A DNA stretch of 64,000 nucleotides from the NCBI GenBank assembly GCA_964440805.1, contig CAYTTR010000004.1:15040-79039 (forward strand), read 5' to 3'. This document shows positions 42,833 to 44,590 of this stretch, one piece after another (the first letter of the stretch is position 1; each line of letters starts with the position of its first letter). The notes under the pieces were generated by a model, which was not told the origin of the DNA, ran no database searches, and worked only from the letters and a program-made list of their open reading frames with translations. The stretch comes from an uncultured Eubacteriales bacterium (GTDB lineage: Bacteria; Acidobacteriota; Aminicenantia; Aminicenantales; Aminicenantaceae). Position numbers and translations under genes: made by a program.

Positions 42833-44590
42833 TTATTCAATAAACAGGCCCTCGATCTCAGCAAAGATCTGGGCATCCCGGAAATGTTTCTGTTGCGAAG
42901 CAGCGCTGGGGCAGGCAGAAACACAGGTGCCGCATCCTTTGCAGAGGGCATCATTGATTTCAGAAATCCCCTTCTCTTTATTGAAGGTGATGGCGGTAAA
43001 AGGGCAAAGTCCCACGCAGAGCTGGCAGCCGGAGCAAAGTTCTTCATCTATTTCGGCTGTAATGGGTTCCAGCTCAAAGACACCCTTATCAGCTAAGGCC
43101 AAGGCTTCGGAAGCAGCTGCTCCTGCTTGAGCCACTGTATCAGGGATATCTTTGGGAGACTGGCAGGTTCCGGCCAGGAAAATTCCGTCGGAAAATGTTG
43201 AAACCGGAGCCAGTTTAGGATGGCGCTCGAGAAAGAAAGTGTCTTGACTGCAGGATATATTGAAAATGTGAGCCAATTCATTTTGCTCAATTCCCGGCTC
43301 AAGACCAGTGGCCAGTATAACCATGTCTACTGGAATCCGGCGGACCGCTCCTAACAAAGTATCTTCTACCCCGATTACAAGTTTTCCCTCTTCGCTTTCT
43401 GTCAGGGGGATATCGCTTATTTCTGATACTCTGCCCCGAATAAACTTGGTTCCTTCCTCGAGCAATCGATGATAGAACTCTTCGTACCCTTTTCCGAAAC
43501 AGCGCATATCGATGTAGAAGTCATATATATCAGCTTCTGTTTTTTCCTTGAGCAGATGGGCGAATTTAAGCGAGTACATGCAGCAGACCCTTGAGCAGTA
43601 TTCGTTGTAGTTTTCATCCCGCGAGCCAACGCAGTGAATAATGCCCACTGCTTTAGGTTCTTCTCCATTGGCCAAAAGAATGTTACCGCCGGTTGGACCT
43701 GAGGCATTAACCAGCTTCTCGAATTCTATGGCAGTTATGACATTAGGAAAGCGCCCGTAGCCGTAGGCCGGTATTTTCCGGGGATCAAAAGGTTTAAAGC
43801 CGGAGGCAAGGATAATGGATCCCACTTCAATCTCTTTTTCTTTCTCCTCCATTTCGTGGTTGATAGCCTCTTTTTCGCAGACTTTTTCACAGAGTTTGCA
43901 GTTTCCGGTTTTAAAATGAATGCAGGCTTCTTCGTCGATAAAGGGAACCATGGGAACAGCTTGTCTTATTGGAACCCGGACGGCGGTAAGGGGTCCTAAT
44001 AGGAGTTCTTCATGAATTACTTTGCGTCCGTGAAGATCTTCGACCGTAATGGCTTCAGTGGGACAAAAATAAGCGCAGGCGGCACAACCGATGCAAGCTT
44101 CTGATTCTTTACCGAAAGGAGGAGCTACTTCTCTATCTTTTCCCCGGTTGATGAAGCTAATAGCATTGGCTCCCACAACATCTTCACAGGTACGGACACA
44201 CAGCCCGCAGAGAATACATTTCTCATGGGGATCCTTGATTTCAAAACGGGTCTTTTCAATTCCCAGGTCCTCGGCAATTTTCTGAACAGGTTCAGCTGCC
44301 GGGGCTCGGGCCATCAGCATTTCTACATTTAGTTTTCTGGCTCTCAGGGCTCTTTCTGAGGAGGTCTCAACCATCATTCCGTCGCGGGCTTGGGTGTTGC
44401 ATGATGTAACCAGATCTTTTTCTCCATGAACATCGATTTCCACCACGCAAACCCGGCAGGCGGCATAAGGCTCAAGCAGCGGGTGATAGCAGAGAGTGGG
44501 GATGTGAACATCCGCCTTTTCCGCTGCTTGAAGAATAGTTGTTCCTTCCTCAACCTGAATTTTTTTTCCGTCTATGGTGATGTCGATCAT
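42833..44590 (-). CDS. chimeric Fe-S flavoprotein: NuoG/HydA-type N-terminus (2Fe-2S + 2x4Fe-4S) fused to the C-terminal two-thirds of HdrA
   Basis: Residues 1-185 contain IDGKKIQVEEGTTILQAA...LCYHP...CRVCVVEI...TSC and CILCGLCVRTCE...CIGCAACAYFCP. From ~205 onward the sequence is HdrA-like: RQAVPMVPFIDEEACIHFKTGNCKLCEKVCEKEAI, HCVGSRD..YCSRVCC, VILATGLEP, GIFLAGTCQSPKDI, and a C-terminal ferredoxin CSGCQLCVGLCP...CKGCGTCVSACP. Confidence 0.75.
   Translation of the reverse strand: MIDITIDGKKIQVEEGTTILQAAEKADVHIPTLCYHPLLEPYAACRVCVVEIDVHGEKDLVTSCNTQARDGMMVETSSERALRARKLNVEMLMARAPAAEPVQKIAEDLGIEKTRFEIKDPHEKCILCGLCVRTCEDVVGANAISFINRGKDREVAPPFGKESEACIGCAACAYFCPTEAITVEDLHGRKVIHEELLLGPLTAVRVPIRQAVPMVPFIDEEACIHFKTGNCKLCEKVCEKEAINHEMEEKEKEIEVGSIILASGFKPFDPRKIPAYGYGRFPNVITAIEFEKLVNASGPTGGNILLANGEEPKAVGIIHCVGSRDENYNEYCSRVCCMYSLKFAHLLKEKTEADIYDFYIDMRCFGKGYEEFYHRLLEEGTKFIRGRVSEISDIPLTESEEGKLVIGVEDTLLGAVRRIPVDMVILATGLEPGIEQNELAHIFNISCSQDTFFLERHPKLAPVSTFSDGIFLAGTCQSPKDIPDTVAQAGAAASEALALADKGVFELEPITAEIDEELCSGCQLCVGLCPFTAITFNKEKGISEINDALCKGCGTCVSACPSAASQQKHFRDAQIFAEIEGLFIE

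Follow-up and report, generated by a model that had tools for sequence, protein, structure and literature searches.

An apparently split HdrA with a BfuA-type iron-sulfur module fused to its C-terminal part in Aminicenantes, and the Bfu-Hdr-Mvh complex that its operon may encode

Introduction

The open reading frame (ORF) at 42833..44590 on the minus strand of a 64,000-nucleotide stretch of DNA from an uncultured bacterium of the Aminicenantales (contig CAYTTR010000004.1, positions 15,040 to 79,039; hereafter the window, whose numbering is used throughout) begins like the iron-sulfur proteins NuoG and HydA and ends like HdrA, and it thereby raises the question of what has become of the N-terminal third of HdrA and of where the electrons carried by the iron-sulfur module would go. 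An original prediction, made from the sequence of the window, held that the module had replaced this third, and that the resulting wire could deliver electrons from an adjacent NuoEF pair directly to the bifurcating flavin adenine dinucleotide (FAD) of HdrA. The ORF is a genuine fusion of a NuoG/HydA-type iron-sulfur module with the last two thirds of HdrA. Sequence comparisons indicate further that its product is one half of a split HdrA, in which a short BfuA module (clusters A1, A2 and A4) is joined in frame to the part of HdrA that starts midway through the inserted ferredoxin domain. The explanation that we consider best, and to which we give slightly better than even chances, is that the split HdrA is re-formed within a Bfu-Hdr-Mvh complex which carries the Bfu core at its inserted-ferredoxin port.

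Anatomy of the fusion protein

The fusion gene starts with ATG and encodes 585 amino acids, which fall into three segments on the minus strand. Residues 1-192 (44015..44590) form a BfuA-type module with a [2Fe-2S] cluster and two [4Fe-4S] clusters but without the His-ligated cluster, as assigned by Pfam, alignment and Foldseek; residues 193-198 (43997..44014), HEELLL, are placed by alignments at the junction between the BfuA and HdrA homologies; and residues 198-585 with the stop codon (42833..43999) are identified by alignments and the HdrA2 profile as HdrA, which here comprises the second half of the inserted ferredoxin, the thioredoxin-reductase core (CVGSRD...YCSRVCC) and, last, the C-terminal 2x[4Fe-4S] ferredoxin. 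In the Pfam scan, Fer2_4 ([2Fe-2S]) covers residues 1-78 (E 5e-21), 4Fe-4S motifs lie both N-terminally and between residues 513 and 564, and Pyr_redox_2 stays below threshold (24.5 bits against a cut-off of 26.1).

The cysteine patterns that the original prediction had picked out are present and conserved. The four [2Fe-2S] cysteines (C34, C45, C48 and C64) and the two [4Fe-4S] motifs (C125/128/131/135 and C166/169/172/176), which make up the twelve ligands characteristic of BfuA clusters A1, A2 and A4, show no variation among 24 homologues whose identity goes as low as 37%, and the same is true of the second cysteine motif of the HdrA inserted ferredoxin (motif 2; C223, C231, C234, C238).

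When the protein is compared with Protein Data Bank (PDB) sequences, its two parts find different partners. Residues 2-194 match chain 9mqx_A, a 'NuoG-like protein' of 247 amino acids (E 2e-37), and also HydA1 of 8a6t; the alignment of residues 2-192 with WorA, which is 9mqx_A, is free of gaps (E 2e-38). The segment that bears the His-ligated cluster motif in HydA1 is absent, in agreement with the earlier remark that this motif was not visible, and it is absent from WorA too. Because the His-ligated (A3) segment is missing as it is in WorA, the module is like the A3-less Type 2 BfuA proteins, and the earlier description of it as a module of HydA type gives way to that of a short, WorA-like BfuA. 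An origin of the module from HydA (group A3) was considered and is unsupported, the His-ligated cluster being absent and WorA the closest relative. Residues 198-582, for their part, align with HdrA residues 276-652 (8rvu, E 6e-118; 5odc, E 8e-112), with the cluster cysteines of the thioredoxin-reductase core (CVGSRD...YCSxVCC) and the C-terminal 2x[4Fe-4S] ferredoxin present and conserved, so that HdrA sequence does stand where HydA would have its H-cluster domain. With E values of this order, chance similarity need not be considered for either part. The junction, previously put between about residues 185 and 205 and within the inserted ferredoxin of HdrA, is narrowed to the few residues between the end of the BfuA homology near residue 192 and the beginning of the HdrA homology near residue 198, and in a joint alignment with relatives these residues are conserved as HxELxLGP.

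The fusion protein lacks one feature that a self-sufficient HdrA must have. No GxGxxG FAD Rossmann motif was found in a Pfam scan of the protein, which is therefore unable by itself to hold the bifurcating FAD. Measured against HdrA criteria taken from NCBIfam NF041778 and NF040770 and from PDB entry 5ODC, it also does not reach the curated whole-protein cut-offs (440 against 1100 bits for HdrA2, and 351 against 1400 bits for HdrA).

The separate N-terminal part of HdrA

The N-terminal third of HdrA has not been replaced. It is encoded about 6.5 kb upstream of the fusion gene, at 51108..51959 on the minus strand, by a conserved ORF of 283 amino acids (HdrA_N) which matches 5odc_A residues 3-263 (E 9e-100). 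HdrA_N carries the N-terminal [4Fe-4S] cluster domain that is missing from the fusion protein, the GxGxxG Rossmann motif (FAD/NAD Rossmann matches of Pfam lie at its residues 147-186), a cysteine equivalent to C197, and the first cysteine motif of the inserted ferredoxin (CNGCGACWENCP), which is of the CxxCxxCxxxCP type; a tail of 24 amino acids and a stop codon follow.

The two pieces complement each other closely. HdrA_N covers positions 1-258 of the NCBIfam HdrA2 profile and the fusion protein positions 265-639. A joint alignment takes HdrA_N as far as 5odc residue 263 and has the fusion start at about residue 268, so that the pieces are complementary to within some 5 residues, and together they span HdrA residues 3-652 at 41-50% identity. 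When unsplit relatives are included in the alignment, HdrA_N is seen to end a few residues past motif 1, before its tail, and the fusion picks up HdrA at LGPLTAVRVPIRQAVP, the counterpart of the conserved RKAIYxPFPQAVP. The fusion protein thus carries only motif 2 of the inserted ferredoxin, motif 1 being on HdrA_N; the last BfuA motif (CIGCAACAYFCP) shares alignment columns with HdrA motif 1 and is followed by a 9-residue extra segment. Taken together, the alignments indicate that hdrA is split inside the inserted ferredoxin domain with essentially no loss of sequence.

HdrA_N is strongly conserved. All four motif 1 cysteines are kept in every orthologue, and HdrA_N is present upstream in 32 of the 32 loci that have enough upstream sequence. 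Its nonsynonymous divergence (dN) is the lowest among the 17 operon segments scored in 15 genomes (median 0.076), with a ratio to synonymous divergence (dN/dS) of about 0.05, a rough value because dS is saturated. The possibility that HdrA_N is a pseudogene remnant is ruled out by this lowest dN, by its constant presence and by its fusion to NuoE in relatives.

HdrA_N, like the fusion protein, falls short of the curated HdrA2 model (376 bits against a cut-off of 1100). Present annotation describes both ORFs as '2Fe-2S/4Fe-4S binding protein' or 'hdrA', and because neither is recognised by the curated HdrA models, pipelines do not see the split.

Occurrence of the arrangement

The fusion recurs in other genomes, as the original prediction had proposed to establish. 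A search of 5.8 billion proteins clustered at 90% identity returned more than 120 clusters with the fusion (585-591 amino acids, 98-100% coverage, 77-100% identity), which, where the source is named, come from Candidatus Aminicenantes and bear generic names such as '2Fe-2S iron-sulfur cluster-binding protein', '4Fe-4S binding protein' or 'heterodisulfide reductase subunit A'. In a survey of one genome per GTDB species, relatives of the fusion protein are encoded in 72 loci. About 44 of these, from some 40 genomes, are Aminicenantes loci with the full-length fusion; one Eiseniibacteriota locus, in a metagenome-assembled genome (MAG), has it at 70% identity and three Chloroflexota loci at 58-59%; the remainder, at 50-56% identity, encode HdrAs that are not split and come from Anaerolineae, Thermoleophilia, Hadarchaeota and others. 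The reading frame of the fusion recurs in 39 loci from these species-representative genomes. Because the frame and the junction are shared by more than 120 independent clusters, at nearly full coverage, and by 39 loci, a frameshift that joined two genes artificially, or an assembly artefact, is excluded. As to the other refutation named in the original prediction, an N-terminus that belongs as a matter of course to some known subfamily of HdrA, the family does exist in databases, but no curated model and no paper searched describes it.

The 16-gene order of the operon, as judged by mapping the proteins of the window onto the 72 loci, is kept in the Aminicenantes and Eiseniibacteriota loci, while the Chloroflexota loci have the order hdrC-hdrB-hdrA_N-nuoE-nuoF-fusion-mvhDGA, without the regulator cassette described below. 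All Aminicenantes in the loci retrieved are MAGs. One of them (L029:5638-11581) has a deletion from the first HATPase gene through the start of nuoF and a fusion gene cut to 526 amino acids by a frame change, and represents either a decayed copy or an assembly error. Many loci that are of Aminicenantes type by sequence and gene order (several of L004-L034) are labelled 'uncultured Eubacteriales' or 'Clostridiales', and L037 is labelled Ktedonobacter racemifer; the record taxonomies of such loci are probably unreliable.

The operon

The genes that surround the two halves of hdrA are closely packed on the minus strand in the order hdrC, hdrB, hdrA_N, DRTGG, HATPase, HydS-like, DRTGG, PHP, HATPase, nuoE, ferredoxin, nuoF, fusion, mvhD, mvhG, mvhA, with intergenic distances of -20 to +13 nucleotides throughout, the exception being 89 nucleotides before mvhD. 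The best promoter-like site of the operon (TTGACA-17-TATTAT, 11/12, a consensus match only; 53635..53663, minus strand) lies upstream of hdrC, behind a strong terminator-like hairpin of the preceding gene (53805-53829).

At the head of the operon, hdrC (52842..53417; 191 amino acids, 68-84% conserved in Aminicenantes loci) encodes two CxxCxxCxxxCP motifs, and hdrB (51961..52845; 294 amino acids) encodes two CCG domains (PF02754, 2 stretches, E 7e-31). At its end stand mvhD (42312..42743; 143 amino acids, FlpD, PF02662, E 3e-58), mvhG (41339..42319; the [NiFe] hydrogenase small subunit by Pfam, 326 amino acids) and mvhA (39882..41342; the large subunit, 486 amino acids), whose product is about as similar to the [NiFe] large subunit of 7t2r as to that of 5odc (7t2r_D, E 7e-118; 5odc_F, E 5e-117). 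With mvhA, mvhG and mvhD beside hdrA, and hdrB and hdrC present, the locus holds the gene set of a [NiFe] group 3c Mvh-Hdr system.

Between the halves of hdrA lie the genes for the rest of a Bfu core, and the adjacent NuoEF pair of the original prediction is real. The nuoE (bfuC) gene at 46850..47302 encodes a thioredoxin-like [2Fe-2S] protein of 150 amino acids (PF01257, E 5e-49). It is followed by a gene for a small, HydD-like, thioredoxin-like [2Fe-2S] ferredoxin of 134 amino acids (46449..46853), whose matches are weak (PF01257, E 5e-5; NF041612, E 2e-12). The nuoF (bfuB) gene at 44603..46435 encodes 610 amino acids with an N-terminal [2Fe-2S] domain, an FMN/NAD site, an N3-type cluster and a C-terminal 2x[4Fe-4S] domain. 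Its residues 10-607 align with 7t2r_B residues 4-594 (E 1e-261; 7q4v_B, E 2e-249), whereas complex I NuoF covers only residues 136-538; because the alignment with HydB runs end to end and that with complex I NuoF is partial, the protein is assigned to the bifurcating type, BfuB. A BfuB with the extra N- and C-terminal iron-sulfur domains and a BfuC are thus encoded beside the BfuA module, as is expected of a bifurcating Bfu core.

A regulator cassette identified by domain and profile searches occupies 47307..51102, between hdrA_N and nuoE. It comprises a DRTGG gene (50734-51102), a HATPase/anti-sigma-like gene (50294-50737), a homologue of the HydS-like sensory [FeFe]-hydrogenases with Fe_hyd_lg_C and PF04060 domains (48928-50301), a second DRTGG gene (48566-48931), a PHP gene (47857-48585) and a second HATPase gene (47307-47849), all on the minus strand, and in its composition it looks like a hydrogen-sensor regulator set. 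In effect, a piece of an operon (BfuC, the small ferredoxin and BfuB, with the regulators in Aminicenantes) sits inside a gene.

Directly downstream of mvhA there is a two-component system (36607-39695, minus strand), with a sensor kinase in two ORFs (a dCache N-part at 39159-39695 and an sCache/HAMP/HisKA/HATPase part at 37826-39154) and a sigma-54 response regulator at 36607-37845 which has REC and AAA domains, no HTH match, and a last stretch of about 50 residues that resembles read-through; these genes may reflect frameshifts or decay. Beyond them lies a second cytosolic [NiFe] hydrogenase set, of the sulfhydrogenase (group 3b-like) type (32035-36485, minus strand), composed of a Fer4_22 protein (35424-36485), an FAD/NAD-binding protein with a DHODB-type Fe-S domain (34567-35427), a small subunit (33777-34649) and a large subunit of 581 amino acids (32035-33780). 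Many related loci have weak MvhG/MvhA matches at the corresponding distance. On the plus strand, at 28487-31768, the window encodes a tricorn-like protease of 1093 amino acids with PD40 repeats, Tricorn C1, PDZ and Peptidase_S41 domains.

Relatives with other module combinations

The fusion belongs to a large group of modular HdrA proteins, which were surveyed in a wider scan of 1.84 billion representatives of clusters at 50% identity. Further clusters join BfuA to the C-terminal part of HdrA (HdrA_C) at 36-60% identity, and Fer2_4::HdrA chimeras are a large family without a name of its own rather than a one-off.

Two loci (L073 and L074) encode a 423-amino-acid protein in which HdrA_N is joined in frame to NuoE (L073:5858-7129; L074:2794-4065), followed by NuoF and BfuA::HdrA_C, the last of which is in L074 additionally fused to MvhD. 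Genes for HdrBC/HdrD-like proteins, EtfAB and acyl-CoA dehydrogenase stand nearby, which suggests a related Hdr-Bfu chimera tied to the metabolism of fatty acids or to Etf. Chloroflexota, and some of the Aminicenantes, have a NuoF (BfuB) whose C-terminal 2x[4Fe-4S] domain is replaced by a fused GltD/NfnB-like NAD(P)H-FAD module (1021-1055 amino acids in all; examples are L003:6918-9983 and L037:1542-4709). As read from its sequence, this module would give the predicted complex a third flavin site.

Other relatives have both parts of HdrA in one chain. P0273 (870 amino acids) and P0274 (883 amino acids), which may be compared with the 283 + 585 = 868 residues of the two ORFs considered here, consist of the full HdrA N-part, motif 1, a linker, a BfuA-like module and the rest of HdrA, the module being inserted at the same site, after motif 1; P0138 has the same layout without the N-terminal domain. 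A tandem form of about 1080 amino acids, in which a BfuA-like module and a Rossmann-less HdrA unit precede a complete HdrA unit, is very common in Chloroflexota, Dehalococcoidia among them, in Planctomycetota, WOR-3, TA06 and Poribacteria, and in some archaea, such as Thermoplasmata; its members (P0275-P0388, P0122, P0126) are annotated merely as 'FAD-dependent oxidoreductase'. Single-chain HdrAs of 1109-1129 amino acids (L052:7685-11074; L038:105-3434, copy 1 of that locus) hold a GltD/NfnB-like module within the inserted ferredoxin, between PFPQAVP..IDKRG and the second Cys motif, at nearly the same point as the BfuA module, and P0133 has an extra 2x[4Fe-4S] at this site. Since BfuA-like modules, GltD-like modules and extra 2x[4Fe-4S] modules all occupy the same site, the inserted ferredoxin domain is a recurrent plug-in point. 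In P0127 and P0174, HdrA_C stands behind a different N-terminal module of about 120 residues, which may be FrhB-like, followed by motif 1 and without a Rossmann motif. Judging by the sequences, HdrA_C seems to be a module put to repeated use, whose N-terminal partners can be exchanged.

A single origin of the fusions was considered and is unsupported, since a quick neighbour-joining tree of the HdrA core does not make them monophyletic. Because they interleave with unsplit HdrAs, a single origin, transfer of the cassette and repeated insertion are all possible, and two orders of events can be envisaged: the module may have been inserted first, as in P0273, with fission and the arrival of nuoEF afterwards, or a nuoE-nuoF-bfuA cassette may have entered hdrA as a unit.

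Structure models

The AlphaFold2 (AF2) model of the fusion protein alone has a predicted local distance difference test score (pLDDT) of 74 and a predicted TM score (pTM) of 0.45. Its BfuA part scores about 90, its junction and half-ferredoxin (residues 185-260) below 50, and its late FAD-domain segments 46-65. In a Foldseek search with this model, HdrA chains are retrieved for the C-terminal part and WorA for the N-terminal part (root-mean-square deviation 1.7 A over 181 columns), and no PDB chain spanning both halves was found; together with the two-part PDB sequence matches, this bears out the chimeric nature of the protein. The lone fusion protein superposes poorly on full-length HdrA (target-normalised TM 0.31), whereas the model of the single-chain P0273 (pTM 0.63, HdrA parts mostly at pLDDT 70-97) does so at a target-normalised TM of 0.87-0.88. 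The FAD-domain segments that are poorly ordered in the former model are well ordered in the latter, which contains the N-part.

The proposed complex and its alternatives

It is highly probable, from the complementarity of the sequences, that HdrA_N and the fusion protein assemble in trans. They would re-create a complete HdrA whose inserted ferredoxin domain is built from both chains, and this HdrA would bind HdrBC at its high-potential side and MvhDGA, the [NiFe] hydrogenase, at its input side, with the BfuABC core attached where canonical HdrA passes low-potential electrons to free ferredoxin. The predicted assembly is Hdr(A_N + A_C)BC-MvhAGD-BfuABC. Conserved gene order and the fusions in relatives support the notion of one such complex, as do the bifurcating type of BfuB and the single-chain relatives with the module at the corresponding site, of which P0273 has a model that superposes on HdrA.

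That the BfuA module is wired to the low-potential port of HdrA we regard as probable, if less so than the assembly in trans. In HdrA-type enzymes the inserted ferredoxin is the low-potential output and, in methanogen HdrA, reduces external ferredoxin, while the core cluster by the flavin hands the high-potential electron to HdrC/BamD (10.64898/2026.04.10.717634). The short BfuA of WorABCSL (9MQX, Acetomicrobium mobile), which has clusters A1, A2 and A4 and no A3, passes electrons along A4-A2-A1-B1. A NuoE homologue touches the BfuA homologue through its N-terminal helix bundle (10.64898/2026.04.10.717634), a contact that fits both chain breaks being at one interface. In the path proposed here, electrons from H2 would pass through MvhAG and MvhD to the FAD of HdrA. 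One electron would proceed through HdrC and HdrB to a disulfide acceptor, and the other would move from the N-domain cluster to those of the inserted ferredoxin, on along A4-A2-A1, and finally to the cluster and flavin mononucleotide (FMN) of BfuB, so that NAD+ and ferredoxin would be reduced at BfuB. The NuoG-like wire of the original prediction would not run straight to the bifurcating FAD: its splice site is in the inserted ferredoxin, the low-potential output of HdrA-type enzymes.

The direction and overall stoichiometry of this path are put forward tentatively. So is the enzyme that they would imply, a series-coupled two-site bifurcating [NiFe] hydrogenase in which the low-potential electrons of HdrA are piped through the spliced BfuA into BfuBC and bifurcated again to NAD+ and ferredoxin, a proposal drawn from sequence which we think possible and rather doubtful. 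If it were true, a Bfu module would for the first time be placed at the low-potential output of an HdrA, and the enzyme would be a clear case of a supercomplex made by the insertion of an operon fragment into a gene, with in-frame fusions or a split gene at both ends, and a hydrogen-linked redox hub for Aminicenantes and some Chloroflexota that is workable at low H2. By a rough balance of textbook potentials, H2 uptake becomes more exergonic when NADH takes the place of half the ferredoxin produced, which would help at low H2.

Several observations weigh against the proposed complex. In the sole solved enzyme with two modules, the Bfu arm enters by the C-terminal ferredoxin domain and an MvhD-like adaptor, not by the inserted ferredoxin (10.64898/2026.04.10.717634). 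BfuA-like modules occur in HdrA relatives that have no nuoEF nearby (P0274, at L077, and P0138, which adjoins an AFOR, BamB-like, gene), and therefore the module alone is no proof of docking to a Bfu core. In the P0273 model the 2x[4Fe-4S] part and the junction have pLDDT below 50, so that the junction and ferredoxin motifs are placed without confidence in both models, and the alignment of the last BfuA motif onto HdrA motif 1 means that the cysteine motifs may be paired in a swapped manner. The fusions interleave with unsplit HdrAs in the neighbour-joining tree with bootstrap values of 66-100, and the dN/dS estimate for HdrA_N has the roughness noted above.

The alternative that survives best, although we hold it to be unlikely, assigns the same parts the opposite use. 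The Bfu core would confurcate, NADH and reduced ferredoxin donating electrons of about -400 mV to HdrA, which would split them between HdrBC, at high potential, and proton reduction at Mvh, or Bfu and Mvh would be interchangeable donors. A fermenter would then use the complex to evolve hydrogen or to balance its redox state, and not to consume hydrogen. Every step is reversible in principle, and the regulator cassette and the nuoE-fdx-nuoF order resemble fermentative HydABC clusters with sensory hydrogenases, such as the hyd operons of Thermoanaerobacter. The Bfu module of class II benzoyl-CoA reductase (BCRII) donates to the HdrA-type flavin (10.64898/2026.04.10.717634), as Schut et al. 2022 likewise propose for Bam-Bfu, but it does so through the C-terminal ferredoxin and the MvhD-like adaptor, a position held here by a real MvhD-MvhGA, and the splice that joins the BfuA module to HdrA is on the output side, in the inserted ferredoxin. 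To evolve hydrogen, a reversed Hdr would, moreover, need stoichiometric thiol oxidation.

It is improbable, in our estimation, that the HdrA part is instead a flavin-less scaffold and wire, by which BfuABC would be connected via MvhD to the [NiFe] hydrogenase around a single (Bfu) bifurcation site, as in A. mobile HydABCSL, with HdrA_N and HdrBC separate or vestigial. The absence of the FAD Rossmann motif from the fusion protein would fit such a scaffold, as would the Rossmann-less first HdrA unit of many relatives, the second, non-bifurcating and mainly structural HdrA unit of BCRII (10.64898/2026.04.10.717634), and the fact that the best PDB matches of BfuB and of the [NiFe] large subunit are both in A. 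mobile NiFe-HydABCSL (7t2r_B and 7t2r_D, with the E values given above). A vestigial HdrA_N is, however, hard to reconcile with its having the lowest dN in the operon, with its constant presence and with the existence of HdrA_N::NuoE fusions, and a flavin-less core with the conservation of its FAD-contact and cluster motifs (CVGSRD, YCSRVCC and GIFLAGTCQSPKDIPD); both CCG domains are also kept in hdrB.

The literal form of the original prediction, in which the 585-residue protein alone bears the bifurcating FAD and is fed directly by NuoEF, has the domain order of the single ORF and the adjacency of nuoE and nuoF in its favour, but it is highly improbable given that the ORF has no dinucleotide-binding motif, that the missing third is encoded upstream with a nearly exact complementarity, and that the FAD-domain segments are well ordered only in the model of the single-chain relative with the N-part. 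An assembly or sequencing artefact, by frameshift or chimeric contig, found no support beyond the demonstration by L029 that such damage occurs in MAGs, and with the frame and the conserved HxELxLGP junction repeated in protein clusters and genome loci from independent sources its probability is negligible.

Comparison with known systems

Flavin-based electron bifurcation is carried out by four known enzyme families. Only class II benzoyl-CoA reductase is reported to join two of these families, and two bifurcating modules in one complex were unreported before it (10.64898/2026.04.10.717634). Among the many Bfu types listed by Schut et al. 2022, Bam-Bfu is the sole one with an HdrA module, and the accessible part of their supplement contains no Hdr or Mvh entry. 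The full-text literature searched, which did not extend to the HdrA review of Appel et al. 2021, holds no description of a split hdrA, of a BfuA::HdrA fusion or of an Hdr-Bfu/Mvh-Bfu type. The operon would thus predict a second, differently wired combination of two families, namely Bfu and Hdr with a [NiFe] hydrogenase. The split gene and the gene fusions mark the contact point, and so provide a concrete, testable model for how bifurcating modules may be chained and for the role of bacterial Hdr-Mvh; the conservation of the arrangement across Aminicenantes bears on how hydrogen, NADH and ferredoxin pools may be linked.

The HydABC-type enzymes (7t2r, 7q4v) resemble this system in their BfuB, which aligns end to end as HydB, in the [NiFe] large subunit, whose best PDB match is 7t2r_D, and in the nuoE-fdx-nuoF-bfuA order with its sensory-hydrogenase regulator set. 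They differ in that their BfuA has the A3 cluster and a direct link to the catalytic subunit, and in having no HdrA, HdrBC or MvhD. WorA (9MQX chain A) is the best match of residues 2-192 and has the same A1/A2/A4 set without the His-ligated A3, but its chain closes with a Zn-finger and a helix plugged into the WorS nanowire, whereas the present protein runs on into HdrA.

The methanogen MvhAGD-HdrABC complex (5ODC, [NiFe] group 3c) shares hdrC, hdrB, mvhD, mvhG and mvhA, all present here in canonical order. In the window, however, HdrA lies in two ORFs 6.5 kb apart, and a 192-residue module with three clusters, together with NuoE and NuoF, stands at what would be the docking place of free ferredoxin. 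Being a bacterium, the host is not known to have CoM-S-S-CoB. The HdrA variants with other modules (L052, L038 copy 1, P0133, P0273, P0274, P0138 and the tandem forms) have, like the present system, an insertion inside the inserted ferredoxin; they differ in being single polypeptides, mostly without adjacent nuoEF, and bear generic names in their sources.

The closest parallel is BCRII of Geobacter metallireducens, Bam(BC)2DEFGHI, which is the Bam-Bfu of Schut et al. 2022 and is known from a cryo-EM preprint (10.64898/2026.04.10.717634). It combines BfuABC-type BamGHI, HdrA-type BamE, MvhD-like BamF and HdrBC/HdrD-like BamD, and is the only described enzyme to do so; the operon described here likewise encodes BfuABC and HdrA-type modules together, as a Bam-type two-module system does, although no AOR-family tungsten subunits corresponding to BamB and BamC were found among its ORFs and Pfam matches. 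In BCRII the BfuA protein (BamI) and the HdrA protein (BamE) are separate and BamE is a fused HdrA dimer, whereas here HdrA is split and BfuA is covalently spliced into the inserted ferredoxin. In BCRII, too, the Bfu arm feeds the HdrA flavin via the C-terminal ferredoxin and BamF, and it is to BamBC, a tungsten enzyme, that the inserted ferredoxin leads. The covalent Bfu join of the present system is in the inserted ferredoxin domain and not on the side of the C-terminal ferredoxin and MvhD, which argues for a wiring unlike that of Bam; here the [NiFe] hydrogenase would occupy the MvhD side and the Bfu module the output side.

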